This document shows positions 2,049 to 58,799 of a stretch of DNA of 64,000 nt, one piece after another. The position numbers and the translations under genes are program-made. The number at the start of each line of letters is the position of its first letter. The stretch's first letter is position 1. This DNA is from a virus: the IMG/VR virus record IMGVR_UViG_3300018079_000003, positions 1-64,000 of that record; one strand, given 5' to 3'. The notes under the pieces are model-generated. The model was given only the letters and a program-made list of their open reading frames with translations. It was not told the origin of the DNA and did no database searches.

Positions 2049-2079
2049 TTCTTAATTCGACTTGCTTGAAATTGAATAT

Positions 2080-2766
2080 TCATCTAGGAATACAAATCAA
2101 CTCGTGTAGATTCGCATCATATCGGCGAACTTCCCGGCAATTATATTGAGACAAATGGCCTAGAATTGACCCGGCGGTAAACCCCAACGGCGCAAGGGCG
2201 GCGGTAAACACTTCGACATGAATGACTGGCTTGTATTTTGCAATTAAATCTTTTGCTCCCGCCAACACCAGTGGCTCCCAACCTTCCGCGTCGATCTTTA
2301 AAAAATCCACCCGCGAGAATCCCAGGCGGTCCAGCGCGACTGTGCGATGAAAACCATCTCGAACCAGGGGCCGTCCACCGAGATGCCATTGTGCCCGCTC
2401 GCATGCCTCCGGCCCAGTCGAGCATTGATACAACTCATCTGAACCCACTGCCGCCTGATAGCAATGGGCCTCGGGGCAATTATGCACCAAACAGAAAAAC
2501 GCATCAGATTGAGGTTCAAATGCATATACCTCGCATCCCCGGAGCAAAAACATATGAGTTGTGTCTCCGATAAACGCCCCCACGTCAATGACGACCTGCC
2601 CCGGCACTAGCGCCCGGACCTCCGGCAAGCCGGTAAAATCATCGTCCCAATCCAACCGGCCCGCCCGCAGGGCCGATGCCGATCCCCCAAGATCGTCTGC
2701 CAAAACAATCTTTCCCGTCTCGCCGATTGGTGTGGTCTTAGGGATTTGCATGTTTAAACACCACAT
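2080..2766 (-). CDS. FkbM-family SAM-dependent methyltransferase
   Basis: VIDVGAFIGDTT SAM-binding motif and VDFLKIDAEGWEPLVLAGA, the FkbM signature. The start may be the ATG at 2751. Confidence 0.75.
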   Translation of the reverse strand: MWCLNMQIPKTTPIGETGKIVLADDLGGSASALRAGRLDWDDDFTGLPEVRALVPGQVVIDVGAFIGDTTHMFLLRGCEVYAFEPQSDAFFCLVHNCPEAHCYQAAVGSDELYQCSTGPEACERAQWHLGGRPLVRDGFHRTVALDRLGFSRVDFLKIDAEGWEPLVLAGAKDLIAKYKPVIHVEVFTAALAPLGFTAGSILGHLSQYNCREVRRYDANLHELICIPR

Positions 2767-3460
2767 GGTCTTGTATGAGACCGTGCAATACCGCTGCGGT
2801 CTTTACCGAATGTATCATCACCCGCCCGTAGAGCCGCACCAACTTCGACATCTCCGCGAACCCACGCTCGCTGGCCGTTTCAAAACTCGCCCCAGTGAAA
2901 AAACTGAGGTGCGGATGCCCACTGCCGCACGCAAGCTGAAGCATGTAATGGTCAATGCACTCGGTGGGAAACGGCATCGGCCAGTCCTCCGGGTTTTGCC
3001 GGGTATGATACGACGTGGGCAACTGGCAATCCAGCATCGCCCGGATACTTTTTCTCGATAAGAAGTATGGCGGCTGACAAGCCAACTTTGGCAACAATGA
3101 CGGCGCAGGATTTGTGTCCACTACCTCATTGGACCAGATCGTATCTGGCGATTCATAACAATACCGAGGAATCTCCGGCGACAGGCAAACTGAGTCCGCG
3201 TCGTGGAAAAGAAAATGCGCGTGCGGGAACTTCAGCATCAGTTCGAGAAATTTCCGATGCCGCTCCAGGGTCTGCGGCCCGATCCAGCCTTTCAGGCCGT
3301 CTGAAAGACAAATACAGCCCGGCATCTGCATGATCGGCGCATCGACGGGTGAAAATATCGCTACCGGGCACTCATGGTGCCGATAGATCGGAAGGTTGTG
3401 CTCGACTTGGTGCGCGTCTCCTGCGTAGGCCGAAACCACTACGAGTGTGTTGGGATTCAT
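2738..3460 (-). CDS. Putative glycosyltransferase, tandem paralog A
   Basis: Clear paralog of 3457..4164 (MNPNTLVVVSAYAGD vs MNPDTLVAVSCYAGD; FLFHDADS vs FLFNDSDS; WSNEVV; PPYFLSR). The DxD-like motif is DAD. Confidence 0.4.
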   Translation of the reverse strand: MNPNTLVVVSAYAGDAHQVEHNLPIYRHHECPVAIFSPVDAPIMQMPGCICLSDGLKGWIGPQTLERHRKFLELMLKFPHAHFLFHDADSVCLSPEIPRYCYESPDTIWSNEVVDTNPAPSLLPKLACQPPYFLSRKSIRAMLDCQLPTSYHTRQNPEDWPMPFPTECIDHYMLQLACGSGHPHLSFFTGASFETASERGFAEMSKLVRLYGRVMIHSVKTAAVLHGLIQDHVVFKHANP

Positions 3461-4164
3461 GGATGCTCCTGCGCATAGGCCCGATGATGCGCCAGCAATC
3501 GGTGTAGGTGATCCGAGGATTTTACCGGATGCACAAACACCCGGCCATGATATCGAACTCGGCCCGACATTTCACCCCACGACTCCCCCCATGGCTCCCC
3601 CATGCGATTGACCTTTGTCCACGGTTCTCCCGCCTCTAAAAAATTTTTATGAAAAATCCCGGCTTCACACACTAATTGCAACATATAGTGATCAATATAC
3701 GGCGTAATAGGATGGATAACGATCCGATCTGCCACCCCCACCATTCGCTGTATCAACGCTCGGCTTAAAAAATACGGGGGCTGCATGGCAATCTTTGGTA
3801 ATGACGACGCATGTGGTCGCGGCTCAACTACTTCATTTGACCACACCACATCCGGGGAATCATAAACATACCTAGGAATTTCTGCGGATAAACACATCGA
3901 GTCCGAATCGTTAAACAGAAAATATTTGTGCGGATAGGTCAGCAATATCTCTAAATATTTGCGTTGCCGATCCAAGGAGTCCTGACCAATATACGCGCGT
4001 TTTCCAGCATGACGACAATCCCATCCCGGCAGGTCCACGGGAGAATCTTCGGGAGAAAATATCACTACGGGCGTCTGATGATGAACGTATGCCTCGATAT
4101 TCCCCGTCACTTGACCAACATCGCCCGCATAACAAGAAACTGCCACTAACGTATCGGGATTCAC
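3457..4164 (-). CDS. Putative glycosyltransferase, tandem paralog B
   Basis: Paralog of 2738..3460. I place the start at GTG 4164, which gives a GTGA overlap with the upstream stop and an N-terminus MNPDT matching the paralog. The ORF track extends to 4236. Confidence 0.4.
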   Translation of the reverse strand: MNPDTLVAVSCYAGDVGQVTGNIEAYVHHQTPVVIFSPEDSPVDLPGWDCRHAGKRAYIGQDSLDRQRKYLEILLTYPHKYFLFNDSDSMCLSAEIPRYVYDSPDVVWSNEVVEPRPHASSLPKIAMQPPYFLSRALIQRMVGVADRIVIHPITPYIDHYMLQLVCEAGIFHKNFLEAGEPWTKVNRMGEPWGESWGEMSGRVRYHGRVFVHPVKSSDHLHRLLAHHRAYAQEHP

Positions 4165-4676
4165 CGGGCGATTTGAATTTGAAACTGTTGAAAACCGTCT
4201 GACTCCGGGACCACCACCGATGCGACTTCCCGCCACTCGGCCCCAAGGGAGGACGCGCGCTGTATAATCACTACGCCGGACTGCATCTCCAAACGAAAAA
4301 AATTATGAACATCCGAGCGGTTCACATAAAATACCGAGCAAAACACCTCGACGCCGTCCCGCCAGCCGGAAATCTCCACCGCTCGGCCCCGGTAGAGTAG
4401 CGGAGGATCGGTAGGCAGACTTTCAATCCCGGCTGTATTCACGGCGGTGAGCGAAAAATATGTGCCCGCATCCACGCCGCTTAACTCCCCCGTCGTGCCG
4501 GTGAAAGACGCGATCCACACATTATTCGCGTAAAGCCGGTATTCCAAAAGGTCCGGCTCCGTGTTAGCGCGCCATGAAAAGCCTACCGTGTCGGCCCGAA
4601 CCATTAAAATGGAACAAATTAGTAGTATCTTAGCAATTAGCTTTTTCATAAATTGGTCGTGGGTGCCGTCGCTCAA
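4161..4676 (-). CDS. Secreted FN3-like domain protein
   Basis: N-terminal signal-like segment MKKLIAKILLICSILMVRA, then a fibronectin-III-like pattern (FSW..N.E.DL.EYRLY ... GTYFSLTAVNTAGIES). Confidence 0.45.
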   Translation of the reverse strand: MSDGTHDQFMKKLIAKILLICSILMVRADTVGFSWRANTEPDLLEYRLYANNVWIASFTGTTGELSGVDAGTYFSLTAVNTAGIESLPTDPPLLYRGRAVEISGWRDGVEVFCSVFYVNRSDVHNFFRLEMQSGVVIIQRASSLGAEWREVASVVVPESDGFQQFQIQIAR

Positions 4677-5575: not shown

Positions 5576-5609
5576 AAGAAACAGTGGACTGGATTGCGGC
5601 AATTGGCCA
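5576..5609 (-). promoter_or_regulatory. CCACTGTTTCTT motif copy (candidate phage-specific promoter)
   Basis: Minus strand reads TGGCCA-N17-CACTGT-TTCTTTGTT-ATG. The 12-mer (5576..5587) is identical to three other copies. Confidence 0.45.
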
Positions 5610-9800: not shown

Positions 9801-9812
9801 CCACTGTTTCTT
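9801..9812 (+). promoter_or_regulatory. CCACTGTTTCTT motif copy (candidate phage-specific promoter)
   Basis: Exact 12-mer. ATG 9817 follows CACTGT by 9 nt, as in the copy at 5576. Confidence 0.45.
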
Positions 9813-11763: not shown

Positions 11764-12654
11764 ATGAGAATTTTAAAGAAACATATTCAAAAACTAAATT
11801 CCATTCTTGATTCGGGCTTGATCAGAGGGTCCGGCAGTAAAGCCAAGCCGGGAAATATCTGCGTTGAGCAGGCGGTTTGTATCGCGCTTGGTTACAAATT
11901 CTCCGACAATCCACCGTGCGTCTCGCGCGCTTTTCGTTCTCTGAAAATGCGGCTGAATGATTGCTCTGGTTGGTCGTCTAATAAAGCGCGGGCCGAAGGA
12001 TTGCGAAAACTCGCTGTCGTGCAAATTGGTTCTCGCGGCGCGTTGGATGATCAGGAATTTACCCGGCGAGTCACCGAAGCTACAATCCAACAAATTATCC
12101 CTCGTGCGCTTCGTAATGCTGCAAAAGTTTGTCCGCGCTATGCTGAACGGCTTGAAGCGGCGGCTGTTCGTTGCATGCAGGAAGGCACGCGGAAGGCGGC
12201 ACTTGCGGCTAAAGAAATCGCCGGTCGCGCCGCCACCACCGCCAACGTTGCCGCCACCACCGCCGCCAACGCCAGCTACGCCGCCACCGCCGCCGCCAAC
12301 GCCGCCGCCACCACTGCCGATGCCGCCCGCTACGCCGTCAACGCCGCCAACGCCGCCGCTGACTGCGCCGCCGACTGCGCCCACGCCGCCAACGCCGCCG
12401 CCGCTGCCGATGCCGCCGCCAGCGCCGCCCACGCCGCCGATGCCGCCACCACTGCCGCCGCCGACTGCGCCCACGCCGCCGATGCCGCCGCCACCACTGC
12501 CGTTGCCGCCCGCTACGCCGCCCACGCCGCCGATGCCGCCGCCAATAAAGCAACGGCGCGCGATGCCGAAATGATTTTTTTCGCCGATATGGTGCTGGCG
12601 ATCCTTGTAGATATGGCAGTGCCCGGCGTGAAATACCTCAAATGGATCAAGTAA
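11764..12654 (+). CDS. Protein with an Ala-rich periodic repeat domain
   Basis: A globular N-terminal ~150 aa, then ~105 aa of xAA-periodic sequence (ARYAAHAADAA, ADCAHAADAA), then a short hydrophobic C-terminus. Confidence 0.55.
   Translation: MRILKKHIQKLNSILDSGLIRGSGSKAKPGNICVEQAVCIALGYKFSDNPPCVSRAFRSLKMRLNDCSGWSSNKARAEGLRKLAVVQIGSRGALDDQEFTRRVTEATIQQIIPRALRNAAKVCPRYAERLEAAAVRCMQEGTRKAALAAKEIAGRAATTANVAATTAANASYAATAAANAAATTADAARYAVNAANAAADCAADCAHAANAAAAADAAASAAHAADAATTAAADCAHAADAAATTAVAARYAAHAADAAANKATARDAEMIFFADMVLAILVDMAVPGVKYLKWIK
12228..12546 (+). repeat. GCC-rich low-complexity coding repeat
   Basis: Degenerate GCCGCC(A/G)(C/A)C units. The region is open in several frames on both strands. 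Confidence 0.85.
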
Positions 12655-20490: not shown

Positions 20491-20536
20491 CCGATAACAT
20501 GGTTTTTTTAATTTGTATTACCGTCGTGGTCGTGGT

Positions 20537-20893
20537 ATGGGTATGGAAAAGCGACTGAAAGTTTTATATGTTGCCGGTCCTTTCCGCGCGGCGAATGCGT
20601 GGGAGGTAGAACAGAACATCCGTCGCGCCGAAGCCCTCGCCCTTGAGGCGTGGCGATGCGGCTGCGCGGTGATTTGTCCACATACTAACACCCGATTTTT
20701 TTCCGGCGCGGCCCCGGACCCTGTATGGCTCGACGGCGATTTGGAAATGTTGCGCCGTTGTGATGCGATCCTGATGACGCCGGATTGGAAAAGATCGTCC
20801 GGCGCAACGAAAGAATGGGAACTGGCCCGCGAATTAGATATGGCGGTGCTTTACTCGATAGAAGACTTAAAAGAATGGCTTGAGTATGTTTAA
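20537..20893 (+). CDS. Nucleoside 2-deoxyribosyltransferase-like protein (DUF4406/DUF1937-like)
   Basis: VLYVAGPFRA...E.N...A......G..V.CPH......WL..DL..L..CD....PDW..S.GA..E pattern. Confidence 0.55.
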   Translation: MGMEKRLKVLYVAGPFRAANAWEVEQNIRRAEALALEAWRCGCAVICPHTNTRFFSGAAPDPVWLDGDLEMLRRCDAILMTPDWKRSSGATKEWELARELDMAVLYSIEDLKEWLEYV

Positions 20894-27204: not shown

Positions 27205-29210
27205 ACCACATAAGTTTAGATTTTGAGACGTTTTTCAGTCGGAAGTTGAAATATGGCCTTCGGACTATGATTGCCGAGACATATTGTCGGCATCCTCTTT
27301 TTGATCCATATTTAATTTCGGCCTGTGATGGCACAACTTCGTGGGTCGGGCATCCTCGGGATTTTAATTGGGACTCTTTACGGGGCCGAAGTATCGTGGC
27401 ACACAATTGGTTTTTCGAGAAGTCGGTAATCATGGAAATGGAACGGCGGGAGTGGATTCCCCCGGTTCTAGCACATATCAAAGAGGCCCACTGTAGTGCG
27501 AATCTTACCGCTTACTTTTGTAACCGTCGCGCACTTGATCAAGCCGTGGAATATCTTTACCAAGTCAAGGTGTCCAAAGACGCCCGTGGAAATGCCGATG
27601 GCAAACACTGGCCCAAAGATTTTTCCCCAGAGGAACAAAAGACGATGTTGGAATACGCAAAGGGTGACGGCTGGTGGTGTTGGAAGTTGTGGGAAGACCA
27701 CTCATCCAAGTGGCCGCAGATGGAACGCGAGTTGAGCCGCATCACGATTGACCAAGGCTTGCGTGGCTGTCAGATCAACGCTGAATTGTTAGATACTTAC
27801 ATCGTGCAAACCCACGAGATGAAGGCCAACACGGAAAAAGTTTTACCATGGATGGGACGCGCGGAAGATGAAGACGACGAGTCGTGGGAAGACTTTAACC
27901 GGAAGCCCACCTCAACCAAGTGCATCGCGGAACAATGTAAGCGATCCGGCATCCCGTGCTGCCCGGTCAAATCGGATGACGAAGAAGCCTACGCCGAGTG
28001 GGAAGCTCTCTATGCGCCCGCGCACCCGTGGATTCACGCGGTTGGTGCGTGGCGATCCGTCAACAAGCTTTACAAAACTTTTCTCAAGGTGAAGTCTCGA
28101 TTACGTGCGGATGGCACGATGCCCTTCGCGCTAAAATATTTCGGCGCGCATACGGGCCGGTGGTCGGGAGCCGAGGGCATAAATATGCAAAACCCCCGTA
28201 AGCGCCCGATCTTTTGTAACGAACACGGGCTGATGGAGTCTAAGGTTTTGCGGGAAGATGAGGCGTTGTCCTATAAAAAAGAAACCGGCGTGTGGCCTGC
28301 GTGGGTTCGGTTCGCGGTAGATTTTCGACATTTGATTGTTCCGAGACCCGGCAAGCGCATGGTCGTTTCGGACCTTAGCCAAATTGAGCCGCGCGTGCTT
28401 GCGTGGTTATGTGGTAACGCAGAACTGTTGGCACTCATGGCCCAAGGCATGACGCCATACGAAGCACATGCCAGAGCGACCATGGGTTGGACCGGCGATG
28501 TGTCTTTAAAAGATGCGGGTAAAATCGACCCGAAGGCGGAGTTAATGTATAAATTAGCGAAAGCGCGGGTGTTGGCGCTGGGCTATCAGGCGGGGTGGGA
28601 AAAATTTGTTGTTATGGCATTGGATACGGGGTTGGATATTACAAAAGACGATCCCGAATTCATTGAAGTGACGTGCCCAATTACGGGTAAAACCAAACAG
28701 GTGAGCGGCTACGGCACAACCAGCAAAAAGATAGTCGCGGAATTTAGAGAACAGAACCCCAAGATTAAGGGTTTGTGGGAACACCTAGATAGTGCGTTTA
28801 AACGATCCGTGGGTTCAGATTTTTCTATGACCTTGCCTAGCGGGCGGGTGATGAAGTATGACAAGGTGCGTTGTGAAATCTGCATCGAAAAGGACAAAGA
28901 GACAGGCAAACCCAAGCGGCGGTCGGTTTTCACCGCAGATATTGGGGGCCGACGTAAGATTATTTACGGTGGACTTTTGACTGAAAATATCACACAAGCA
29001 GTTGCGCGGGACGTGTTTGCGTGGCATATTGTGAATATGGCTCGGCGCGGTTGGTTGAATTTATTTTCGGCCCATGACGAAGCGATCCTCGAAGTGGACG
29101 CCGACGTGAGCGCGAAGGACGTGGAACAGGAAATGAGTCGATGCCCGGAGTGGATTCCGGGGTTGCCGGTTGCCGCCGAGGCTAAGATCGTCCCGCACTA
29201 TTTAAAATGA
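27201..29210 (+). CDS. Family A DNA polymerase with a 3'-5' exonuclease domain
   Basis: ExoI SLDFET. Motif A VVSDLSQIEPRVLA, motif B KLAKARVLALGYQAG, motif C SAHDEAILEV. Confidence 0.85.
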   Translation: MNHISLDFETFFSRKLKYGLRTMIAETYCRHPLFDPYLISACDGTTSWVGHPRDFNWDSLRGRSIVAHNWFFEKSVIMEMERREWIPPVLAHIKEAHCSANLTAYFCNRRALDQAVEYLYQVKVSKDARGNADGKHWPKDFSPEEQKTMLEYAKGDGWWCWKLWEDHSSKWPQMERELSRITIDQGLRGCQINAELLDTYIVQTHEMKANTEKVLPWMGRAEDEDDESWEDFNRKPTSTKCIAEQCKRSGIPCCPVKSDDEEAYAEWEALYAPAHPWIHAVGAWRSVNKLYKTFLKVKSRLRADGTMPFALKYFGAHTGRWSGAEGINMQNPRKRPIFCNEHGLMESKVLREDEALSYKKETGVWPAWVRFAVDFRHLIVPRPGKRMVVSDLSQIEPRVLAWLCGNAELLALMAQGMTPYEAHARATMGWTGDVSLKDAGKIDPKAELMYKLAKARVLALGYQAGWEKFVVMALDTGLDITKDDPEFIEVTCPITGKTKQVSGYGTTSKKIVAEFREQNPKIKGLWEHLDSAFKRSVGSDFSMTLPSGRVMKYDKVRCEICIEKDKETGKPKRRSVFTADIGGRRKIIYGGLLTENITQAVARDVFAWHIVNMARRGWLNLFSAHDEAILEVDADVSAKDVEQEMSRCPEWIPGLPVAAEAKIVPHYLK

Positions 29211-29608
29211 GGCGTTGTTCTTCTTGTCGTAAGGTTAAGCCGTTGCCGGAATTTTATAAGGCAGCGGCCAAAGCGAATCGGGGTTATCAATACAACTGTA
29301 AGCGGTGCTGTTGTGGCTTAGCGCATAGTTGGCGACAAAGAAATCCCCGCCGCGAACGATCCATACAACTTAAGAAAAATTATGGTATTACGATCCAACA
29401 GTTTGAGGCCGTGGAAAGGTGTCAAAAAAGACGCTGTGCAATTTGTAAGAAGCGCGCTAAATTGACGGTCGATCATTGTCACGCTCGGTTAGTTGTGCGG
29501 GGCCTTCTTTGTGCCAAATGTAACGCTGGAATCGGGTTGCTTTGTGATTCGATAACTATTTTACAATCCGCTATTGTGTATCTATCTCCCGATGTTCTTC
29601 GCGACTGA
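29207..29608 (+). CDS. Recombination endonuclease VII
   Basis: CAICKK....LTVDHCH....VRGLLCAKCNAGIG, the T4 endonuclease VII family signature. Confidence 0.8.
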   Translation: MRRCSSCRKVKPLPEFYKAAAKANRGYQYNCKRCCCGLAHSWRQRNPRRERSIQLKKNYGITIQQFEAVERCQKRRCAICKKRAKLTVDHCHARLVVRGLLCAKCNAGIGLLCDSITILQSAIVYLSPDVLRD

Positions 29609-49542: not shown

Positions 49543-50874
49543 TTATGCGGGCGTAACCACGCCCTCGCGAATTTTTACCGAAAAAGTATTCATCGTGCGC
49601 GCGGCGCTCGCAAGATTTTTAACACCATAAGCGTGCCGCATCGCCGTGTCGGCAGTTGGAAGGGTGGTTATAACCGTCGCGACCAAGGCGCTCCCGATAT
49701 AAAATCGAATTTCCCCCCCGCCTCGATTCCACTCAATTCGGAATAGTTGTCCCACCGTTGTGCTTGGCGCAACGCCCGTATCCACAACCGTCTGACTGGT
49801 TCCGTCACACACCACGGCTTGCCAATTCGTATCCGGGAGCGACGTTGAAAAGCGGAATCCAACAAACACTACGGTCATCGTTTCGGTCTGCAAAAATAAA
49901 TTGGCAGCGGTCGCGTTAGTGTATCCAAGCCACGAACGAGTGCTGACCGTCTCGTTCAGCTTGACCCACATAACTGTCTTATTGTTTAAACTAAACAATC
50001 GAAACGACGTGGTGGGGGATTCGTAATAGGCCGAATTGTTTGTAGTCGCCGATGTGCGTAGGTCACGACCCTGTGGATTGTTTGCGTCGGCGGCAACCGC
50101 GTTTACCGAAGACGCCGTGGAAGTCCATGCATCCCCGATTAGTGTAACGCCGCCATTATGAAAATTCTGAGATCGCTCCGCAAAAAATAACCAATCACTA
50201 ACCGTCCCGCCCGCACCCGGAGGCCCCGTCGCGCCGGTATCACCCTTGTCCCCTTTCGGGACAAAATCAATAACGACTTCATCCGGTTGGACCAACGTTC
50301 CTGATTTAACGATGTTCGCGACCGTGAAAGTATCCCACGTCCCGTTATCGGTAATTACCCCGCTAATTGAAAAAATTGAAAAGACCGCTGGATTGGTTTT
50401 TTTGCGAACTGTTAAGGTTCCCCTGATAGTTGAAGTGCTGTCGTCCCACGTCGCCAGATACGCCGATAGACTATTCGTATCATCGTCTGTCTCGGAAATA
50501 AACAGCGCCGTCGCGAGGGCCAGATCGGCATTATTAAACCGCAAAACTCCCGCGCCGGGATCGCCCGATGAAGTCGTGCCGCTGTAAACGTAGTTAAGCC
50601 CGGTGCTGACTCCATCCGCCCCATTCGTGCCGTTGGTTCCATTCATTCCGGGCGCTCCATCATTTCCGGGAACACCTTGAATGCCTTGCGGGCCGGGGTC
50701 ACCCTCGGGACCGGTCGATCCAGCCGGACCGGTTGCGCCCACTGGACCCTGCGCTCCAACAAAATCAGGAGGCACCCGCCGCAATCGAAATACGTCCGGC
50801 GAAATTTCCACGGTGCAAATCACAAACCCATCTTCGACGATAGCGTTCCAAATTGGAATTTCAGATACCCTCAT
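49543..50874 (-). CDS. Collagen-like tail fibre protein
   Basis: A G-X-Y run GAQGPVGATGPAGSTGPEGDPGPQGIQGVPGNDGAPGMNGTNGTNGADG and a second run GDKGDTGATGPPGAGG. Confidence 0.65.
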   Translation of the reverse strand: MRVSEIPIWNAIVEDGFVICTVEISPDVFRLRRVPPDFVGAQGPVGATGPAGSTGPEGDPGPQGIQGVPGNDGAPGMNGTNGTNGADGVSTGLNYVYSGTTSSGDPGAGVLRFNNADLALATALFISETDDDTNSLSAYLATWDDSTSTIRGTLTVRKKTNPAVFSIFSISGVITDNGTWDTFTVANIVKSGTLVQPDEVVIDFVPKGDKGDTGATGPPGAGGTVSDWLFFAERSQNFHNGGVTLIGDAWTSTASSVNAVAADANNPQGRDLRTSATTNNSAYYESPTTSFRLFSLNNKTVMWVKLNETVSTRSWLGYTNATAANLFLQTETMTVVFVGFRFSTSLPDTNWQAVVCDGTSQTVVDTGVAPSTTVGQLFRIEWNRGGGEIRFYIGSALVATVITTLPTADTAMRHAYGVKNLASAARTMNTFSVKIREGVVTPA

Positions 50875-51074
50875 ATATTATCCACGCAAAGAAAATCGTT
50901 GTTATCTTCTAAAACAACCACACTATTATCTTCCAATAAAAAATCACAGGCTTCGATAGAAAGCAGAGGTGGGACGTTTAAACTATACCGACTCGCCCGG
51001 ATGAACCGCGCCGGGGGGCAACACGAATTCGCTAAATCCGGCCCGCGATAAACCGGTTTATTGCAATTTGACAT
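50871..51074 (-). CDS. Small hypothetical protein (possible fibre chaperone)
   Basis: 67-aa ORF filling the gap between the two fibre genes, with an ATGA overlap to the downstream fibre gene. Confidence 0.3.
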   Translation of the reverse strand: MSNCNKPVYRGPDLANSCCPPARFIRASRYSLNVPPLLSIEACDFLLEDNSVVVLEDNNDFLCVDNI

Positions 51075-52077
51075 ACGTTATTGTCGTCCGCAATGCCACC
51101 GCCGCTACGACATCCACCGTAGTGCATTTACCCCGTAAAGTAATTTGAGTATTATCTCCCGGAATCGCCGTCTGAACGGTAAACGACATAGTTTTCAGTC
51201 CGTTAACTCCTACATTGGACAGGGCGTGTTCTGATCCTCCTAAATCCAACGATGTCGTATTATTTCGCAAAATAAAAAATACCTGATCTGACGCAAGCAC
51301 TCCCGCCAATCCTACCACGTCTACCGAGACCGTAATTTGATAAGTCCCCGAGGTCGGCAATAAAACGCGCGCTTCCGAACCCCCGAAATCCACCGCAGAA
51401 TACGTAACTCCTAGATTATCATCAGTTCCCGACGTAAGAAAATACATCCCATTAGTTGCGGTATGAGAAACACCCGGCGATCCCGGCGGACCTGCCGGTC
51501 CTTGCGGGCCTGCCGGACCCGTTACGCTCTGGCCGGGAAAACCCGAAGGAACAACTAACTTACCCGCCGTAATTGTCGCGGGCGCGCCGCCCAAACCTTG
51601 AACTAACGTTACCCATAGCGTGCCCGAACCGTCCTTAGCCGTAATCTGATACCAACCCGAAGTATCAATAAAGATATACGATCCTACCAACAACGCCGGA
51701 TTGTATTGGGTCGAAATTTGTCGGTTCGGATCGCCAGAATTCGGCTGCGAAAAACTCGCAAGTGTTACCGTAAAAGCATTACTGCCATTTGCCCCCGCCA
51801 CGCCCGGGATGCCTGCGGGGCCGGTTGCACCAATAATCCCCTCTTGGAACAGTCGTATAAAATAACATGCGAGGCCCTCGTCACTCGCGCGAGGATTATT
51901 GTCCAACCCGATATCCAGACTACACGGCAAGGACCACGTCACCACGCCGTTCACTTCTGTTTTTACCACCGCACCAAAAAACTGTGTGGTAAAATTCTGA
52001 ATCTGCGAAGACAGTGCTTCGCATTCAATTGTGCTCGTCTCCGGGCAACAACAAGGACTACAACCGCACCCACACAT
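51058..52077 (-). CDS. Collagen-like fibre protein with a Cys-cluster N-terminus
   Basis: G-X-Y runs GATGPAGIPGVAGANG and TGPAGPQGPAGPPGSPG. The N-terminus is MCGCGCSPCCCPE. Confidence 0.6.
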   Translation of the reverse strand: MCGCGCSPCCCPETSTIECEALSSQIQNFTTQFFGAVVKTEVNGVVTWSLPCSLDIGLDNNPRASDEGLACYFIRLFQEGIIGATGPAGIPGVAGANGSNAFTVTLASFSQPNSGDPNRQISTQYNPALLVGSYIFIDTSGWYQITAKDGSGTLWVTLVQGLGGAPATITAGKLVVPSGFPGQSVTGPAGPQGPAGPPGSPGVSHTATNGMYFLTSGTDDNLGVTYSAVDFGGSEARVLLPTSGTYQITVSVDVVGLAGVLASDQVFFILRNNTTSLDLGGSEHALSNVGVNGLKTMSFTVQTAIPGDNTQITLRGKCTTVDVVAAVALRTTITYVKLQ

Positions 52078-52080
52078 AAA

Positions 52081-52593
52081 TTATTTTCCTTTTATTTGTC
52101 CGCGCAACTCTCCATGCCGGTGACTAAACCAGTAAAGCAAAACGGCCCCAACTCCGAGACACAAAATCAAAATTTCATTACCGACAATCAGGGATGGCAG
52201 CGCCATCAGCGCAATTCCGGCCGCAACCGCTACTGCACTAGTTGTCGCACTCCCCACAATAGCCTTCAACGGGGGCCACACAAACGACGCCGCGCCCGCC
52301 ACGAAAAGTAGCAAACCAACCCAAACGACGCCCTTCAGAGAAGCTAGTTTTGCTCCCATTTCTCGGGCCGTGTCTTTTTGGGCCGCACCGATTTTGGTTT
52401 TCACCCGTTCGGTAACTTTATTTCCCTCCGTCACACGCTCGAATTCCTGCGTCGTGCCGGTCTTTGGGTTTTCTGACTGCTCAACCCCTCCCGAAATACC
52501 GGACGGGCTTTGAAAATGGCTGCGTCCGCCCTTTTGAGACGCAATGCAACCAGAAAGCAACAGCCAAATCAAAATTAAAAATCCGATCTTCAT
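52081..52593 (-). CDS. Lipoprotein-signal membrane protein
   Basis: Lipobox LLSGC after a hydrophobic leader, and a C-terminal half with about three hydrophobic helices. Confidence 0.5.
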   Translation of the reverse strand: MKIGFLILIWLLLSGCIASQKGGRSHFQSPSGISGGVEQSENPKTGTTQEFERVTEGNKVTERVKTKIGAAQKDTAREMGAKLASLKGVVWVGLLLFVAGAASFVWPPLKAIVGSATTSAVAVAAGIALMALPSLIVGNEILILCLGVGAVLLYWFSHRHGELRGQIKGK

Positions 52594-52802
52594 TCGGAGG
52601 GTTTGGTTTTTAATCGACGAACCACATAAATCGCCGTCGCGACGCCAATGATAATTTGAACCAACAGTAGCGCAACCCGAAGATATGATTCAATCCCAGC
52701 AACCGCAGTCTCTTGCGCGGCTTGAACCGCCTGAACCCCCGCCCCCACAAAATTAGTCCCTACCAGCGCGCCAACTTTGGTTGCCTCTGATAAATTTTTC
52801 AT
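52590..52802 (-). CDS. Small membrane protein (holin-like)
   Basis: 70 aa with a hydrophobic C-terminal helix and a basic tail RRLKTKPSE. Confidence 0.4.
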   Translation of the reverse strand: MKNLSEATKVGALVGTNFVGAGVQAVQAAQETAVAGIESYLRVALLLVQIIIGVATAIYVVRRLKTKPSE

Positions 52803-52897: not shown

Positions 52898-54196
52898 TCA
52901 GGTCAGATCAGCGCAAGGGTCTTCCTCGCACACACCAACCGTAGCGAACGCATCAGCCCCAGTGAAGCTAGAAGCCACCGGATCGGCGCAATCCACCAAG
53001 CCCAAGTCGGCAAGACAACGCTTATAAGCAATCGCAATGACGTGCTGCGGGCGCAGCGGTTTATACGCGCGGGTGATCTGATATTTGTGGAAACCAAAGT
53101 CGCCCCAAATATTGTTACAATCCATGCTGTAGAACCATTCCAATTCACCCATGTGGAGTTGCGGAGCAAACTTAAAGCTGCCCTCGCCCACGTAGCGTTC
53201 CGGCACCTGCCGCTCGAACGAACCGTCGGCAAGCAAGAAACCGATCTCGTAAAGAGCATCCGTCCAAGCCGGATTAACCTTCGCATACGCCGTTTTCTTT
53301 GCCGCGTTTGAGACAATAATAACCGGATTGATCAGCACCGGCATACCGGCACCATCCAAAACGTTAAACCGTAACGAACGTTGATCCACACCGAAGGCAA
53401 GACCACGATACGCGGGAGATTCCTCGAAACTGTAAGCCTTCAAGGTCGTTTCGCCGAGTTTGTAGCCGCCCGAGGTAAGACAACACATCGTATTCTGCAC
53501 GCCGACTTCGCTGCGGAAGTATTCGACTTGGTCCGCCCCGCCGATGAAGCGGAAGTGGCCCATGCCTTTGTCAGTCGAAAACCATTCGCCGAAAAGCTGC
53601 TCCCGAAGGTAGCGAGCGAGGTAGTGAAGCGCCTTGAAGGTCATCGGCCCGGTGGGCAGGATGGGCGCAAACTTAACGCCGAGATCGGTTTCGGACCCGC
53701 CCGTAAAGAGCGAATTGAAATCGAAGGTGGCGTTTGCTACGAACTTGGAAGCCGAACGCAAATACAACTGAGCGCGGATGTCCGCGTTGATGTATTGCAC
53801 GATCAACTTCTTGAGAGAGTCCTCGGCAGTCGTGTAGCTGGACTTGAAGGCCGAGTAACCCTGCTTGACGCAGATGTTGGGGCCGCGACCCCGAAACGAT
53901 TCCAGTTGGACCGTAAAATTGACGGTATCCGTCAGGTCTTGATGACCATTCAACCCGCAAATTTCGGTATCGCAAACGAAGGTCGGAATGGCGAGACTAT
54001 CGCCGGGAGCCGCCTGCATTTGAACAACGGAACGCTGTGAGTCGGAAGTGCCAGCGGGAAACGTCCCGCCGCCGATCACGTTCATAAAAACAGAATTGGC
54101 CGCGAGTGCTTTTGCGATTGCCCCGACAATTCTGTTATGGTCCTTACTAGCAATGTCTGAAATTTGTGACGGATCGTCACAGTATGAAACAGCCAT
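52898..54196 (-). CDS. Major capsid protein (by position)
   Basis: 432 aa, downstream of portal and scaffold. It is flanked by its own promoter-like motif and terminators, as expected for the most highly expressed gene. No motif check was possible. Confidence 0.6.
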   Translation of the reverse strand: MAVSYCDDPSQISDIASKDHNRIVGAIAKALAANSVFMNVIGGGTFPAGTSDSQRSVVQMQAAPGDSLAIPTFVCDTEICGLNGHQDLTDTVNFTVQLESFRGRGPNICVKQGYSAFKSSYTTAEDSLKKLIVQYINADIRAQLYLRSASKFVANATFDFNSLFTGGSETDLGVKFAPILPTGPMTFKALHYLARYLREQLFGEWFSTDKGMGHFRFIGGADQVEYFRSEVGVQNTMCCLTSGGYKLGETTLKAYSFEESPAYRGLAFGVDQRSLRFNVLDGAGMPVLINPVIIVSNAAKKTAYAKVNPAWTDALYEIGFLLADGSFERQVPERYVGEGSFKFAPQLHMGELEWFYSMDCNNIWGDFGFHKYQITRAYKPLRPQHVIAIAYKRCLADLGLVDCADPVASSFTGADAFATVGVCEEDPCADLT

Positions 54197-54347: not shown

Positions 54348-54381
54348 AAGAAACAGTGGGAAGTATAAGAAGAAAGGTCAA
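54348..54381 (-). promoter_or_regulatory. TTGACC-N17-CACTGT promoter candidate with a CCACTGTTTCTT 12-mer
   Basis: Starts immediately after the terminator T-run and lies ~150 nt upstream of the capsid ATG. Confidence 0.55.
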
Positions 54382-54384
54382 CTA

Positions 54385-54413
54385 ATAAAAAGGCGGTCGA
54401 AAATCGACCGCCT
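54385..54413 (-). terminator. Rho-independent terminator
   Basis: Minus strand reads GGCGGTCG-atttt-CGACCGCC followed by TTTTTATT. Confidence 0.7.
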
Positions 54414-54437
54414 CCAACATACAAAATTTTTGTAGTT

Positions 54438-54665
54438 TTATGCCTCAGACACGCATAGCACGAGCCGGAGCAAAGTCGCAATTGGCTCGTCCCGCAATCC
54501 CTCCTGTAGGGTGCCGGGGCACCCGCACGTAAACCCGCACTCACTGCTAAAGATACGCTCAAGTTCGTCCGACGTTCGCTGATCGAGAAATTTACTGGCC
54601 GGACCCTGCCGGAGATAGTTGATCAACCAAGTGAGTTGGGCCTGTTGCTCTGCCGTTAATGTCAT
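54438..54665 (-). CDS. Small hypothetical protein
   Basis: 75-aa ORF lying between a promoter motif and a terminator. Confidence 0.45.
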   Translation of the reverse strand: MTLTAEQQAQLTWLINYLRQGPASKFLDQRTSDELERIFSSECGFTCGCPGTLQEGLRDEPIATLLRLVLCVSEA

Positions 54666-54681: not shown

Positions 54682-54715
54682 AAGAAACAGTGGGTCGCCA
54701 AAGAAAAAAGGTCAA
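54682..54715 (-). promoter_or_regulatory. TTGACC-N17-CACTGT promoter candidate with a CCACTGTTTCTT 12-mer
   Basis: Same architecture as 54348..54381, placed 21 nt upstream of ATG 54665. Confidence 0.55.
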
Positions 54716-54719
54716 TCTG

Positions 54720-55448
54720 CTATTTTCCCAAAAGGGATTCACGAGAATAGCTCATCAAACTTCCATCTTTAACCCCATGGATGAACGCCCATCCCTGTTT
54801 TTTTAACCACTCGTATTCTTTAAATTCCATCGTCCTCTGCCCGCAACGGTTCAGATTTTTCTGCGAAAAGCCTACCCCCCACTCCGTAAACTTTGGAAAC
54901 AGATAAATGTCCCACGGCTGTTTGGGGGGCACGCCGGTCATAGTTATGCCCATCACCAACCATTTCAGGAAATCGAGGTTCCCAGTTACCATGATATTAC
55001 CGTTCAAATGCTGGGAACAGTTAAACGTATCGGATGACTCGGCTCCGACCAAGCAAGTGTTTAAACGAATGAACTCTTCGTTACACTCATTGATCCACGT
55101 TTTCGAGATCGGGACCACATCGGCCTCAAGAGCTATGATCCATTTGTAATCTGGTATTTTTCCTTGAGACTTCATGTGGTAGAACCATTCCATCAACGAA
55201 AACCAAAGAACCCAACACCCCCACGGGTGCCCCTCTCCGTGCGCGACACACCGGAGTTTACGAACGTTGAATTTCCTAGACACATGCGCCACGGCTGCCT
55301 CATCATGATCACAGTCCCACCTCGCGATGAAAACAAAATCAATATCGTCCCGGCGCACGGGTTCAATATCGGCAATGAACTTTGCCAGCCGCATCGCTTT
55401 AACTTTATCACCTGCCCAGAATTGAACGGCAATGATTCCTTTTTTCAT
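54720..55448 (-). CDS. Putative glycosyltransferase (GT-A-like)
   Basis: N-terminus IIAVQFWAGD resembles VVSAYAGD of the 2738/3457 paralogs. ALEADVVP is an acidic motif in the DxD position. Confidence 0.35.
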   Translation of the reverse strand: MKKGIIAVQFWAGDKVKAMRLAKFIADIEPVRRDDIDFVFIARWDCDHDEAAVAHVSRKFNVRKLRCVAHGEGHPWGCWVLWFSLMEWFYHMKSQGKIPDYKWIIALEADVVPISKTWINECNEEFIRLNTCLVGAESSDTFNCSQHLNGNIMVTGNLDFLKWLVMGITMTGVPPKQPWDIYLFPKFTEWGVGFSQKNLNRCGQRTMEFKEYEWLKKQGWAFIHGVKDGSLMSYSRESLLGK

Positions 55449-55816
55449 CAGTCGTTGTCGGACACGTCACAAGCCCCAATTTCGGATTTATCACCCAATC
55501 CCGCCTTCAAACCCGGCTCGATGTCTTTCCAAAAATTCTTGTGCTGCCAAGAAGGCTCTAAGACGTAATGATACCTCACCGACCGAAGCCCCATTGGTGC
55601 CACCGCCCTCTGTAAGGACGGGCGCGTCCACCAAAGCTTAATCCGATTAACCAAATCCCGCCATCCAAAAAAATATGGAAACCAACGAGGTTTATGATTT
55701 GATATGCCGTGCCTTAATAGGTTTTTCTGATGTCGCCCATACGAGTGACGCATGCGCTCGAAGCGGCGCACAGCGCGCCTAAGGTCTTTTTCGTATGTTT
55801 CTTGGGTGCTTTTCAT
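55448..55816 (-). CDS. Hypothetical basic Trp-rich protein
   Basis: 122-aa ORF sharing a 1-nt overlap with its neighbour. Confidence 0.4.
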   Translation of the reverse strand: MKSTQETYEKDLRRAVRRFERMRHSYGRHQKNLLRHGISNHKPRWFPYFFGWRDLVNRIKLWWTRPSLQRAVAPMGLRSVRYHYVLEPSWQHKNFWKDIEPGLKAGLGDKSEIGACDVSDND

Positions 55817-55828
55817 GTTTGGGGTGTT

Positions 55829-56566
55829 TTATTCAATTATTTTCCACGGGGCGCGCAATTCCGGCCCCCGGGCATTAGTCGGATATATCTTGGCGTATTT
55901 GTGAAACACCAAAACCGTGTTTGACAACGCCCCAACTGCGTAAAGGGATTCCGCAAGGTTGAGAAAAGCCGAATCAATGACGTGCAACTCTTGGGCCGCG
56001 AAAACCTCGGGCAACCAATCTAAAATCGACCGACGTTTGTTGATGTGAAACCAATCAAGATTTGCCGGTAACAACTCCGACTTGATCAAAAAATTCCGAT
56101 CCCGGTCTTCGTGGACCAGCGCAATGTGTTTTTTTGGCTCCCGATGTCCTTTCAAAAGCCTCGCGGGAAATCGGCACTCCGACCAACGGGCCGCGTAGGG
56201 GACGCCTGCTTGCCGGTAAATTTCTGAGTCCCATTTCGACTCGTCAGCCCCCGCCAACGCCCCCAACTTCATCGCGTGGGGGATTTGAGCCGCCCACCAT
56301 CCTCGCACTTCTCCATCATTCATCGCGGAAAGCACCTGCACATTCGGAAGGTCCGAAACCGTCTGCCGCACCGCCCGCACGTAGTTCACATGCGTCAGCC
56401 ACTTGACCCGTGGATGCTGCCGGGCCAGCACCCGGATCAGACCATTCATAATCAACGCGCTTCCGAATTCCAACGGCCCGAAAACGTATAGGCTTTTTGG
56501 AGGCTGGGGAATGTCGTTCATCATGGGAAATTGGGGGCGGGTCAGATGTATTTCTTTCAGGACCAT
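55829..56566 (-). CDS. Hypothetical protein, possibly glycosyltransferase-related
   Basis: 245 aa in the glycosyltransferase island. The only cue is a weak Rossmann-like N-terminus (LYVFGPLEFGSALI). Confidence 0.3.
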   Translation of the reverse strand: MVLKEIHLTRPQFPMMNDIPQPPKSLYVFGPLEFGSALIMNGLIRVLARQHPRVKWLTHVNYVRAVRQTVSDLPNVQVLSAMNDGEVRGWWAAQIPHAMKLGALAGADESKWDSEIYRQAGVPYAARWSECRFPARLLKGHREPKKHIALVHEDRDRNFLIKSELLPANLDWFHINKRRSILDWLPEVFAAQELHVIDSAFLNLAESLYAVGALSNTVLVFHKYAKIYPTNARGPELRAPWKIIE

Positions 56567-57456
56567 AAGTTGTCTGGATATACTTTATGGCCTGTGTGTC
56601 CACAAATCAAGCCTAAATCTATAAAAACTTCGTGTCCAGATTCACGCGCGCGCCGCGAAAGAATTACGTCCTCGCCAACACCCAACCCAGAAATTTTCCG
56701 TGCCCGACCCGATGCGGCCTCTAGCATCTCAAAGGCTTTTAACGCCTTCTCTCCCGTCATAGGTCCGTCCGACAACATTGCGCGGGTTTTATCTACATCG
56801 TCCATTAGATGATGTTCTGAAGACGAAAACCAATTATCCTTAAGCGCCGGGAACCGCTTCGTTATGTCTTCAAAAACCGAACGATGGGTCAACACGCACC
56901 CGAACCCGATCCAAGCCGTCTGACGAATTTCATCCCGAGGGCATGTTTTTGCAAGTTCGTGACCCAAACCCCCCACTTTCATTCCCTCTGCGAAAATCGC
57001 CGAGGCATTAGAGTGCCGACCAAAATAAAGCGCACCTACAAGATTTTTACCGTGGGAAAGAAGCCGGTCAATTGTATTTAATTTTGCAAACTCGTCGGGA
57101 AACTTTGGCCAGCCACAGTGCATCTTAAACCATTTAGGCCGGCCGCACGGCGCGATGATGTCGTCGTCTACCCAAAGCGCGTATTCGTAATCGGTTTTCA
57201 AAAACTCCGCCGCGCAACTATTACGCATGTGGGCTACGAACGCATCCCCATGGTTTTGCATCAACGCCGTTCGTCGCCGGTCAGCTAATTGCGCAATACA
57301 AAGTGCGGTCATGGGGGAAAACGACTTATAGGCCGGAGTGATAATCAAAACCTTTTTAGAGAGCGGTCGGAAATTATCCGACCGCTCCAAAGGAATCAAC
57401 GGCACTCCCGAACCCCGATCCTCAAGCAAACTCCCAAGCACGGGTCGCGTATCCAT
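56557..57456 (-). CDS. Family-2-like glycosyltransferase (GT-A fold)
   Basis: VLIITPAYKS N-terminal strand and YALWVDDDI DxD motif in the usual GT2 spacing. Confidence 0.55.
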   Translation of the reverse strand: MDTRPVLGSLLEDRGSGVPLIPLERSDNFRPLSKKVLIITPAYKSFSPMTALCIAQLADRRRTALMQNHGDAFVAHMRNSCAAEFLKTDYEYALWVDDDIIAPCGRPKWFKMHCGWPKFPDEFAKLNTIDRLLSHGKNLVGALYFGRHSNASAIFAEGMKVGGLGHELAKTCPRDEIRQTAWIGFGCVLTHRSVFEDITKRFPALKDNWFSSSEHHLMDDVDKTRAMLSDGPMTGEKALKAFEMLEAASGRARKISGLGVGEDVILSRRARESGHEVFIDLGLICGHTGHKVYPDNLWS

Positions 57457-58799
57457 TACGCAGCCGCGCCCACGCGCGCACGCTCCTGCATCACCTGCTG
57501 CGCGATTTCATCGAGCGCATCCACCGTCCGCCCATGAAAAATTTTGTCCTCAGACTGCTTTACTTCGGGAACCTTTCCGCCCGGAGCAACCGCCGATTCC
57601 CGAAGTCGAGAAACACTCGCGCTCTTGAACTTGTTGATTTTCTCCTGCGCTTCCTTCAAGTCTTTTTCCAACTGCGCGACCCTTGAAGTCGCCGCCGCGA
57701 GTTGGGGTTTCAAGTGCAATAATTGCGCCATGCCAATGATCATCACCGCGCGCATATCCGGGGAGTCGTCCTTGAGCGCCGCCTGAACATAACCCGTCGT
57801 TTCTTTAACAAAAGTATTGTGCGCCTCAATAGATTTTTTCGCGGCTTCATCTGCCCCAGCCGGAATTTGTTTGGTATTAAGATATTCCAGCTTAGGCATG
57901 TGCTGTTTTAACACCGCCTCCGTGTCAACATTATGCTTCGTTGCGGCAGCTTCCCATTGTTTTTGCCGCTCCGTCATATAGCCGGAAATATTTTCCTTTG
58001 CCGCCTTTACGGACTGATCTCGATGGAATTTCGCCATCTCGATGTCAGCAATTTTCGATTCCACCAGACGTTGAATCGTCGGATCGCCCATCGCCTCGAA
58101 AATTTTCTCCAAGTTTACATTCTCAGGACCGCCGTTTTTTTTGATCTTCGCAATCACCTCGTCGGTAATGTTTGGAAATTTGCGCAACTGCGCATAAATA
58201 AACTCCTGCGACATTGAGATGGTCTTCTCATGTTCTTTGAACTTGGGGTCGGCGTCCACATCGAGTTTTGCGCGCCATTGGCGAAGGTCTTCCAACTCCT
58301 TCATGATTTCATCCGGCACTGGGGCCGAGAGTTTCGCCTCAAGGTCTTGCGTTTTCTTTTTCAATTCCTCTATCTGCTGCTCGCGGGCGGAAATCTCCTG
58401 CGCCGCTTTAACCTTCACAGCCGAAAAAGATTCTGCCGCTTTAGGACTGGAATTGGGCGGGAGTCCCGGCGAGTCCTTGAAAATATCCTCGGCGCGCTTG
58501 CGTTCGGCCTCGCTCTTGTCAGCGGCGGCTTTGGCTTCCGCCTGCTTTGCCGGATCATTCTCCGCCGCCTTACGCGCGGCCTCGTCGTCTTCCGCCCTTT
58601 TATCAACTTCGGTTTTTTCCTCTACAACCTCGGTCTTTTTCTTCAAGATCGCGTCGAGCGCGTCTCCCGGCTCCGCATTAAAGTCGGGAGAAGTAGACAC
58701 CTTGCCTTGCTCGACGAGCGCCGCCGCCACCTCTGTATTATTTTTTACAACATCGGGGAAGCCGACTTGTTCCGTTTTTGGGATGATTTCGTCTGCCAT
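57456..58799 (-). CDS. Scaffolding protein
   Basis: 447 aa, rich in Ala, Glu and Lys and predicted helical. Sits between the portal and capsid regions. Confidence 0.55.
   Translation of the reverse strand: MADEIIPKTEQVGFPDVVKNNTEVAAALVEQGKVSTSPDFNAEPGDALDAILKKKTEVVEEKTEVDKRAEDDEAARKAAENDPAKQAEAKAAADKSEAERKRAEDIFKDSPGLPPNSSPKAAESFSAVKVKAAQEISAREQQIEELKKKTQDLEAKLSAPVPDEIMKELEDLRQWRAKLDVDADPKFKEHEKTISMSQEFIYAQLRKFPNITDEVIAKIKKNGGPENVNLEKIFEAMGDPTIQRLVESKIADIEMAKFHRDQSVKAAKENISGYMTERQKQWEAAATKHNVDTEAVLKQHMPKLEYLNTKQIPAGADEAAKKSIEAHNTFVKETTGYVQAALKDDSPDMRAVMIIGMAQLLHLKPQLAAATSRVAQLEKDLKEAQEKINKFKSASVSRLRESAVAPGGKVPEVKQSEDKIFHGRTVDALDEIAQQVMQERARVGAAA

Follow-up and report, generated by a model that had tools for sequence, protein, structure and literature searches.

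In the 64,000-nucleotide stretch of virus DNA analyzed here (positions 1 to 64,000 of the IMG/VR record IMGVR_UViG_3300018079_000003, hereafter the window), four open reading frames (ORFs) lie within a block of head genes, and two of them, ORF-A and ORF-D, encode predicted glycosyltransferases. In transcription order they are ORF-A (56557-57456), ORF-B (55829-56566), ORF-C (55448-55816) and ORF-D (54720-55448), all on the minus strand. A preliminary description of this DNA had named four co-directional ORFs as a glycosyltransferase island between scaffold and major capsid genes. Its coordinates were exact, all four run on the minus strand, and homologues were found for each of them. They belong to a single minus-strand gene block (49.5-64 kb) that starts with a 636-residue ATPase, two small ORFs, a 683-residue portal-sized protein and a 101-residue ORF, continues with a 447-residue scaffold-like protein, ORF-A, ORF-B, ORF-C, ORF-D and a 75-residue ORF, and ends with a 432-residue capsid-like protein, two small membrane proteins and two collagen-like fibre proteins. 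Stop and start codons overlap by one nucleotide between the scaffold-like gene and ORF-A and likewise between ORF-C and ORF-D.

ORF-A encodes a soluble protein of 299 residues in which no transmembrane segment was found. Its AlphaFold (AF2) model (pLDDT 85.8, pTM 0.82) consists of one alpha/beta/alpha domain of the Rossmann-like type, built around a central mixed sheet. A Foldseek comparison of the model with the PDB returned LH3, COLGALT1, STIV A197, Mnn9, mimivirus R699 and ppGalNAc-T at E values of 4e-7 to 1e-4 and TM-scores of about 0.4-0.47; among the matches listed, 49 of 50 are glycosyltransferases and the remaining one is the GT-A-like majastridin. When compared with BFVD, a collection of structures predicted for viral proteins, the model ranked GT-A proteins of uncultured tailed phages first (E down to 1e-13), followed by weaker matches to proteins of megavirus, PBCV-1 (Q98454) and Mycobacterium phage Ardmore (gp87), and all named matches are glycosyltransferase or GT-A proteins. 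The triplet D97-D98-D99 (57160-57168, minus strand) stands directly after strand 92-96 of the model, which is the canonical position of the DxD motif after the fourth strand; all of 50 aligned sequences have D97 and D99, and at least 90% have D98. Invariant in 50 sequences are also G286-H287 and the acidic motif G261-E262-D263 (56668-56676, minus strand), which is located ahead of helix 262-272 and is a putative catalytic base or metal ligand. Because the model is confident, its matches are GT-A proteins and the DDD triplet occupies the canonical DxD position, ORF-A is by its modelled fold a GT-A enzyme, predicted to transfer a sugar from a nucleotide-sugar donor. The motifs VLIITPAYKS (residues 36-45) and WVDDDI (residues 95-100), from which a GT2-type enzyme had been proposed, are present, but this class assignment fails at the sequence level, as no GT2 family of Pfam or NCBIfam was matched. 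The family matches obtained were Anp1, below its cut-off (E = 0.022), and phrog_34859, annotated as 'glycosyltransferase', over 43 residues (E = 3e-4), and a search of the PDB with a 50-sequence profile of ORF-A found no glycosyltransferase by sequence.

Database searches yielded 417 homologues of ORF-A (down to E = 1e-184), all of them unnamed and located on contigs of up to about 75 kb. The clade comprises well over a hundred environmental phage contigs with genomes of about 70-75 kb, and ORF-A is about 50% identical across it. Related loci were collected through ORF-A (80 from IMG/VR and others). Since such a set is circular with respect to ORF-A itself, a second retrieval was carried out through the capsid-like protein, of which the best 80 of 189 matches were used. 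The gene order shared by all loci retrieved through ORF-A is terminase, portal-sized protein, scaffold-like protein, ORF-A, a variable stretch, capsid-like protein and collagen-like fibre protein. In the capsid-retrieved set, ORF-A directly follows the scaffold-like gene in all 57 loci that hold both genes. The placement between scaffold-like and capsid-like genes is borne out for both GT-A ORFs, A and D. The idea of an island that entered a module otherwise without such genes had to be given up, as ORF-A is a core gene of the clade, and the term fits only the variable part that follows it.

ORF-D, a soluble protein of 242 residues, has 40 homologues and is found in most related loci. Its AF2 model (pLDDT 95.0) matched only GT-A structures of the PDB in Foldseek, namely CHSY3, glycogenin, B3GalT5, GfsA, GlyE, LgtC and C2GnT (E = 2e-8 to 2e-6, TM-score 0.51-0.64). 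The motif at its DxD position, E108-A109-D110 (55119-55127, minus strand), follows strand 101-107, so that the model has the GT-A fold together with an acidic motif placed behind its fourth strand; E108 and D110 are each at least 90% conserved in 38 sequences. By its fold, ORF-D is thus also a predicted GT-A glycosyltransferase. The preliminary description would have fallen had none of the four ORFs adopted a GT-A or GT-B fold, and both ORF-A and ORF-D model as GT-A. Sequence and profile searches of Pfam, NCBIfam, PHROGs and the PDB gave no match for ORF-D, nor for ORF-B and ORF-C, and tblastn against 50,697 phage records found neither ORF-A nor ORF-D. No relation of ORF-D to ORF-A, ORF-B, the pyruvyl transferase or further families encoded in the variable stretch emerged when they were compared in pairs or by profile.

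The remaining two ORFs differ from these and from each other. ORF-B represents a large unannotated family associated with glycan genes. Its likely start is Met15 (56524), since the homologues are about 229 residues long. A word-indexed search returned 41 homologues and a full hidden Markov model (HMM) search 1903 representative clusters (E <= 1e-3), and neither Pfam nor the PDB gave a sequence match, even with a 135-sequence profile. Members of the family are fused to a polysaccharide pyruvyl transferase (P0323) or to a 'u15' domain with an R-D-x-D-S-R motif (P0221, P0229, P0316). ORF-B adjoins the pyruvyl transferase gene in nine related loci, and a family member on another phage contig lies beside TylF-type methyltransferases. 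In Synechococcus phage S-SRM01 a homologue is located between a NodZ-like fucosyltransferase and a GT2-like gene, in a cluster that also holds Gmd, Fcl, FkbM and alpha-1,2-fucosyltransferase genes. The ORF-B family is thus linked by association to fucose-type glycan clusters. ORF-C is a small, basic, Trp-rich protein of 122 residues and not a glycosyltransferase; of the four ORFs that had been grouped under this heading, ORF-A and ORF-D belong there and ORF-C does not. Only a 40-residue core of ORF-C (WFPYFFGWRDL..KLWW) is conserved, with 62% identity to an ORF of 84 residues that takes its place in L087-L089, where the DNA itself is not alignable with that of the window. This core is kept in the closest relatives only, and ORF-C is absent from more distant loci. 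The possibility that ORF-C is a remnant of the pyruvyl transferase that fills this slot in some relatives was discarded, as there is no resemblance by eye (no alignment was made) and the conserved core is a feature of ORF-C itself among its closest relatives. The source names of the cluster members are all 'hypothetical protein'.

A second group of sugar genes lies near the other end of the window on the minus strand. It includes a GDP-L-fucose synthase (Fcl/GMER)-like enzyme of the short-chain dehydrogenase/reductase (SDR) type (1122-2048), which matches NF047922 at E = 1.5e-109 and 366 bits, below the 500-bit equivalog cut-off, and an FkbM-family methyltransferase (2080-2766; TIGR01444, E = 7e-18, above the curated cut-off). 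A gene for GDP-mannose 4,6-dehydratase (Gmd) was not found within the 64-kb window, while Gmd+Fcl pairs occur in relatives. Soluble, virus-encoded glycosyltransferases are found together with a nucleotide-sugar supply. No 19-residue stretch of transmembrane-level hydrophobicity is present in any of the transferases or other proteins of the module. Downstream of the Fcl-like gene, a papain-like protein of the YaeF/NlpC-P60 type (346-861, minus strand; weak match, E = 6e-5) is encoded, which is possibly a cell-wall hydrolase.

Next to the methyltransferase gene are two paralogues with an 'AYAGD...DADS' signature (2738-3460 and 3457-4236, minus strand), which are probable nucleotide-sugar transferases. 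They are 46% identical to each other (E = 2e-72), and G14-D15, D87, D89-S90, H217 and K220 are invariant in the family. Searches of Pfam, NCBIfam, PHROGs and the PDB were empty, the best PDB match being the GT-A-like IspD at a non-significant E of 0.09, and tblastn of one paralogue against the 50,697 phage records found nothing. The preliminary description had placed two paralogues at 2738-4164; there are indeed two, but the upstream one extends to 4236, where it has a GTG start. It had further noted a likeness to ORF-D at the N-terminus and at an acidic motif. The N-terminal motifs are present, as GIIAVQFWAGD opens ORF-D, LVVVSAYAGD the ORF at 2738-3460 and LVAVSCYAGD that at 3457-4236, and the alignment of ORF-D with the paralogues pairs EAD with D-S-D and IHGVKD with IHSVKT, which makes three motifs in matching order. 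Neither the sequence nor the profile comparison reached significance, however (BLASTP E = 0.2 and 1.3; hhalign probability 9-11%, P = 0.003). A distant common origin of ORF-D and the paralogues is possible. A functional tie of ORF-A and ORF-D to the genes at 2738-4236 is supported, since relatives have those genes, together with Fcl, in the slot between the scaffold-like and capsid-like genes.

The variable stretch after ORF-A accommodates a changing selection of sugar genes in the related loci: ORF-D, ORF-B, one or two AYAGD paralogues, Fcl alone, Gmd+Fcl pairs, an SDR epimerase, a CapD-like dehydratase (Polysacc_synt_2), a pyruvyl transferase (PS_pyruv_trans), GT4, u7 and u15. At least ten gene orders follow ORF-A, while the capsid-like protein stays 62-83% identical to that of the window. 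In L001 all sugar genes of the window, including both AYAGD paralogues and an Fcl-related SDR gene, are located between the scaffold-like and capsid-like genes. In L081 and L086 accessory sugar genes are found just upstream of the terminase gene, a place that is probably shared by the Fcl, FkbM and paralogue genes of the window (1122-4236). Because the genes of this second cluster occupy the head-block slot in relatives, we regard the two sugar clusters of the window as one system. The variable stretch also takes up mobile or accessory genes for HNH endonuclease VII, GIY-YIG endonuclease and Mom. An endonuclease VII/HNH-type gene (u5 family) lies just upstream of the capsid-like gene in L011, L012, L017, L025, L034, L048, L058 and L061, and the same slot holds GIY-YIG in L003 and L012 and Mom in L003, with shorter forms of the latter in L034 and L048. 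As endonuclease and Mom genes gather there, the slot after ORF-A is an insertion hot spot. In the window, an endonuclease VII/HNH-type gene (29207-29608, plus strand) adjoins the DNA polymerase gene.

Several further observations were made on the families of this stretch. The u7 family (L072:15116-15817) and the u15 family (L051:14301-14990, also L023), the latter with an R-D-V-D-S-R motif and fused elsewhere to the ORF-B domain, are unannotated and probably represent further nucleotide-sugar transferases. The GDP-mannose 4,6-dehydratase gene of L072 (12418-14502) encodes 694 residues, as the conserved dehydratase sequence is split by an insertion of about 350 residues that looks like an intein.

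The roles of the flanking genes were inferred from gene order, size and conservation, so that 'scaffold' and 'major capsid' are to be understood as putative assignments. The scaffold-like protein (57456-58799, minus strand; 447 residues, rich in Ala, Glu and Lys) lies between the portal-sized and capsid-like genes, a position kept in all related loci, and gave weak, sub-threshold Pfam matches only, to helical and coiled-coil-type families. The capsid-like protein (52898-54196, minus strand; 432 residues) is distinguished by position and by very high conservation, with a mean column identity of 71% over 18 diverse relatives. For both proteins no match was found in Pfam (above threshold), PHROGs, the PDB or the 50,697 phage records. 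Sequence and profile searches of Pfam, NCBIfam, PHROGs and the PDB were likewise empty for the portal-sized protein, as was tblastn against the phage records. The 636-residue ATPase has a weak likeness to terminases (PHROG E = 0.012; 23% identity to annotated Streptomyces-phage terminases, E = 6e-4). The label 'T7-like' given to the module was not substantiated: the window encodes a family A DNA polymerase and a sigma-factor-like protein, and no RNA polymerase family of Pfam was matched among the window ORFs scanned.

Between the capsid-like and collagen-like fibre genes lie the two small membrane proteins (52081-52593 and 52590-52802, minus strand), one with a lipoprotein-type signal (LLLSGC) and C-terminal hydrophobic segments and the other with a single strong transmembrane segment; these could be lysis or superinfection-exclusion genes. 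Elsewhere in the window, a 296-residue ORF without family match (11764-12654, plus strand) lies in a stretch of 62% G+C, its C-terminal half being a degenerate Ala-rich repeat (AATTAANA..., AADCAHAA...). A test of the window ends for terminal redundancy or circularity was negative.

The sugar genes and the capsid-like gene are separated by candidate regulatory elements. A terminator-like hairpin with a 12-bp stem followed by a T-run (54389-54415, minus strand) is by far the strongest site of its kind in the region, where terminator-like sites as a whole are no more numerous than expected from shuffling. Upstream of the capsid-like gene a promoter-like repeat, TTGACCTTTCTTCTT...CCACTGTTTCTT (54348-54381, minus strand), was found, a second copy of which is located at 54682-54715. 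The 12-mer CCACTGTTTCTT occurs four times (5576-5587, minus; 9801-9812, plus; 54348-54359, minus; 54682-54693, minus) against an expectation of 0.28, each time in an intergenic position and pointing at downstream genes, and two of the copies belong to a longer repeat, TTGACCTTTYTTCTT...CCCACTGTTTCTT. A near-identical promoter-like element follows ORF-D in the relative L087. The CCACTGTTTCTT element is a candidate phage-specific promoter, which is perhaps read by the sigma-factor-like protein of the phage (31778-32509, Sigma70_r4). The Cys-containing 75-residue ORF (54438-54665, minus strand), which separates ORF-D from the capsid-like gene and has its own promoter-like motif and terminator, resembles a mobile cassette in its behaviour; homologues in L026, L030, L031, L041 and L056 lie upstream of the terminase gene, those in L050 and L157 downstream of the capsid-like gene. 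To judge from the hairpin and the promoter-like motif, the sugar genes probably share their transcript with the portal-sized and scaffold-like genes and not with the capsid-like gene.

Taken together, we propose, with a probability of about 0.5, that the phage encodes a cytoplasmic glycan-building module within its head-morphogenesis block that glycosylates a virion protein. The enzymes would use nucleoside diphosphate sugars, including GDP-fucose or a related 6-deoxyhexose. ORF-A would attach a conserved first sugar and the variable enzymes would extend it, so that late in infection a short, lineage-variable, partly methylated or pyruvylated oligosaccharide would be built on the virion protein. 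A virion protein is favoured as acceptor because the position of ORF-A beside the head-assembly genes is invariant, because the toolkit yields a decorated oligosaccharide and not a single sugar, because functions for a lipid carrier or for export are absent from the module, and because chloroviruses and Che8-type mycobacteriophages provide precedents. The acceptor that we would favour is the conserved C-terminal tail of the capsid-like protein (residues 401-432; 52901-52996, minus strand), which is rich in Ser and Thr and bracketed by Cys. The pattern SS[FY][ST]G[AS]D.[FY]..GVC is found in 60 of 63 distinct tails, and Ser and Thr together make up 25% of the tails compared with 12.5% of the body; the choice of this tail is speculative. 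Alternatively, the collagen-like fibres (49543-52077) or the scaffold-like protein might be modified. More tentatively, all members of the clade might glycosylate their capsid as a built-in step of head assembly, with a universal priming GT-A enzyme and a swappable cassette for extension and decoration (fucose pathway, methyl and pyruvyl transferases), which would furnish near-identical capsids with different glycan 'serotypes'.

Several points weigh against glycosylation of a virion protein. The capsid and scaffold labels are derived from position alone. The slot also collects unrelated HNH, GIY-YIG and Mom genes, which makes location weak evidence of function. The strong hairpin and the separate promoter-like motif part the sugar genes from the capsid-like gene, and with these elements in between, co-transcription of the two is not implied. 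The matches of ORF-A to collagen and mucin glycosyltransferases reach TM-scores of only about 0.45 and do not indicate its specificity. Finally, large glycan clusters exist in other phages, such as S-SRM01, where no target has been demonstrated, and such clusters are commonly interpreted as modifying the surface glycans of the host.

This last point leads to the view that the enzymes remodel the host envelope by altering lipopolysaccharide/O-antigen, capsule or S-layer glycans, for example to block superinfection or to keep progeny from re-adsorbing to lysed cells, the place in the head module being incidental. The Gmd/Fcl/fucosyltransferase/FkbM clusters of cultured phages without evidence for virion glycosylation, among them that of S-SRM01 with its ORF-B homologue, would fit this view, as would the uptake of accessory genes by the hot spot and the location of accessory sugar genes upstream of the terminase gene in L081, L086 and probably this window. 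However, the module of the window contains no membrane protein, priming phosphotransferase, flippase or polymerase, and none of these functions was recognised among the island families of relatives scanned against Pfam. ORF-A, moreover, keeps its place next to the scaffold-like gene throughout the loci, with an identity of about 50% across the clade, which would be unusual for an accessory metabolic gene. Lysogenic conversion is unlikely as well, as a search of 185,579 species genomes brought up no prophage copies; its three matches all come from metagenome-assembled genomes of unrelated taxa and are probably binning noise. On balance, we consider remodelling of the envelope unlikely, although it is the strongest of the alternatives.

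The transferases might also act on the phage DNA, where a modified base of the 5-hydroxymethylcytosine (5hmC) or 5-hydroxymethyluracil (5hmU) type would be glycosylated against restriction, as happens in T-even phages and in the metavirome clusters of Pyle et al. Phage metagenomes commonly contain 5hmC-glycosylating enzymes of the GT-A type, whose genes can adjoin structural or packaging genes (bioRxiv 10.1101/2023.12.21.572611), a Mom-family DNA-modification gene occupies the same slot in three relatives, and late timing would fit a modification before packaging. We nevertheless hold this to be very improbable, given that Pfam searches of the replication-region ORFs of at least 120 residues and of the related islands revealed no thymidylate-synthase-like hydroxymethylase, TET/JBP dioxygenase or cytosine methyltransferase, a negative that covers 64 kb of genomes that reach 70-75 kb in relatives and a method that can miss divergent enzymes. 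The sole nucleotide-related oddity found in the replication module is a DUF4406/DUF7768 protein (20513-20893, plus strand; E = 5e-11); DUF4406 is grouped by Pfam with the nucleoside 2-deoxyribosyltransferases. Up to five transferases with methyl and pyruvyl decoration also exceed the mono- to trisaccharides reported on DNA (bioRxiv 10.1101/2023.12.21.572611). Quite improbable, finally, is a glycosylation confined to the fibres, in which the collagen-like proteins (51058-52077 and 49543-50874), and not the head, would be the acceptors. Mimivirus fibril collagen and Bacillus BclA are analogues of such acceptors. Collagen glycosyltransferases (LH3, COLGALT1, mimivirus R699) are among the solved structures that ORF-A matches best, a megavirus procollagen-lysine dioxygenase/glycosyltransferase is matched as well, and nearly every related locus encodes a homologue of the 339-residue collagen-like protein. 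These matches are of a generic GT-A kind, however (TM-score about 0.45, 8-12% identity), and are surpassed by those to phage GT-A proteins. No lysyl hydroxylase was found, the collagen-like repeats are almost without lysine, and the transferase genes adjoin the scaffold-like and capsid-like genes and not the fibre genes.

Whatever the target, a fold and a likely activity can now be assigned to several large families of 'hypothetical proteins', and the conserved head gene block holds two unannotated transferase families, probably four. If virions are the target, glycan coats on capsids would be far commoner in nature than thought. The clade would then offer a natural system in which glycans are diversified on a fixed protein scaffold, and its small, soluble, cytoplasmic toolkit for protein glycosylation might be of use in glyco-engineering and phage display. 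What is new here is best described as unannotated GT-A families, one of which is a core head-module gene of a large uncultivated clade, plus a fast-changing glycan cassette.

When compared with solved GT-A enzymes, ORF-A and ORF-D share the overall fold and the acidic motif after the fourth strand, and the solved relatives of ORF-D belong to the families GT8 (glycogenin), GT31 (B3GalT5, GfsA) and GT14 (C2GnT). The two proteins differ from these enzymes in that identities are only 8-14%, TM-scores 0.4-0.64 and no family HMM is matched; ORF-A in addition has a long helical insertion (residues 215-255), and ORF-D has E-x-D in place of D-x-D. DNA-glycosylation clusters described by Pyle et al. also contain GT-A enzymes of uncultivated phages, sometimes beside epimerases, second glycosyltransferases and structural or packaging genes (bioRxiv 10.1101/2023.12.21.572611). 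They are, however, defined by a neighbouring 5mYOX or ThyS gene, neither of which was found here by Pfam among the window ORFs and related islands.

To our knowledge, phage-encoded glycosylation of virions is documented only for some actinobacteriophages and, among large eukaryotic viruses, such glycosylation is documented for chloroviruses. Glycans are reported on the major capsid proteins of the mycobacteriophages Che8 and Rita (Freeman et al. 2023, as cited in PMC11256854 and PMC12582341), and related actinophages encode their own glycosyltransferases together with methyltransferases (PMC13313380). In the related F1 phage Maravista the genome has its glycosyltransferase genes towards the 3' end, a long way from the gene for the capsid protein (PMC11256854). 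The phage studied here is likewise a tailed phage with glycosyltransferases of its own, and Ardmore gp87 is a weak fold match of ORF-A. In contrast to the mycobacteriophages, its core glycosyltransferase gene is shared by the whole clade and placed between the scaffold-like and capsid-like genes, the enzymes belong to other protein families, and the virion glycans documented there are here predicted from the genes. Chloroviruses encode GMD/GMER, soluble glycosyltransferases and a methyltransferase domain (A064R) for their capsid glycans (PMC5408694). PBCV-1 and this phage both have soluble GT-A enzymes with DxD motifs, no membrane anchor and an associated methyltransferase, and both have genes of the GDP-fucose pathway (Fcl in the window, Gmd+Fcl in relatives). 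PBCV-1, however, is a giant eukaryotic virus with scattered genes, whereas here the genes are clustered in the head operon of a clade of about 70-kb phages; sequence homology between the two is not detectable, Q98454 being a weak fold match of ORF-A, and capsid glycosylation, demonstrated for PBCV-1, is proposed here from gene content. If the members of the clade do coat their capsids with variable glycans, this would be the equivalent, among phages, of the capsid glycans of chloroviruses and of the O-antigen diversity of bacteria.

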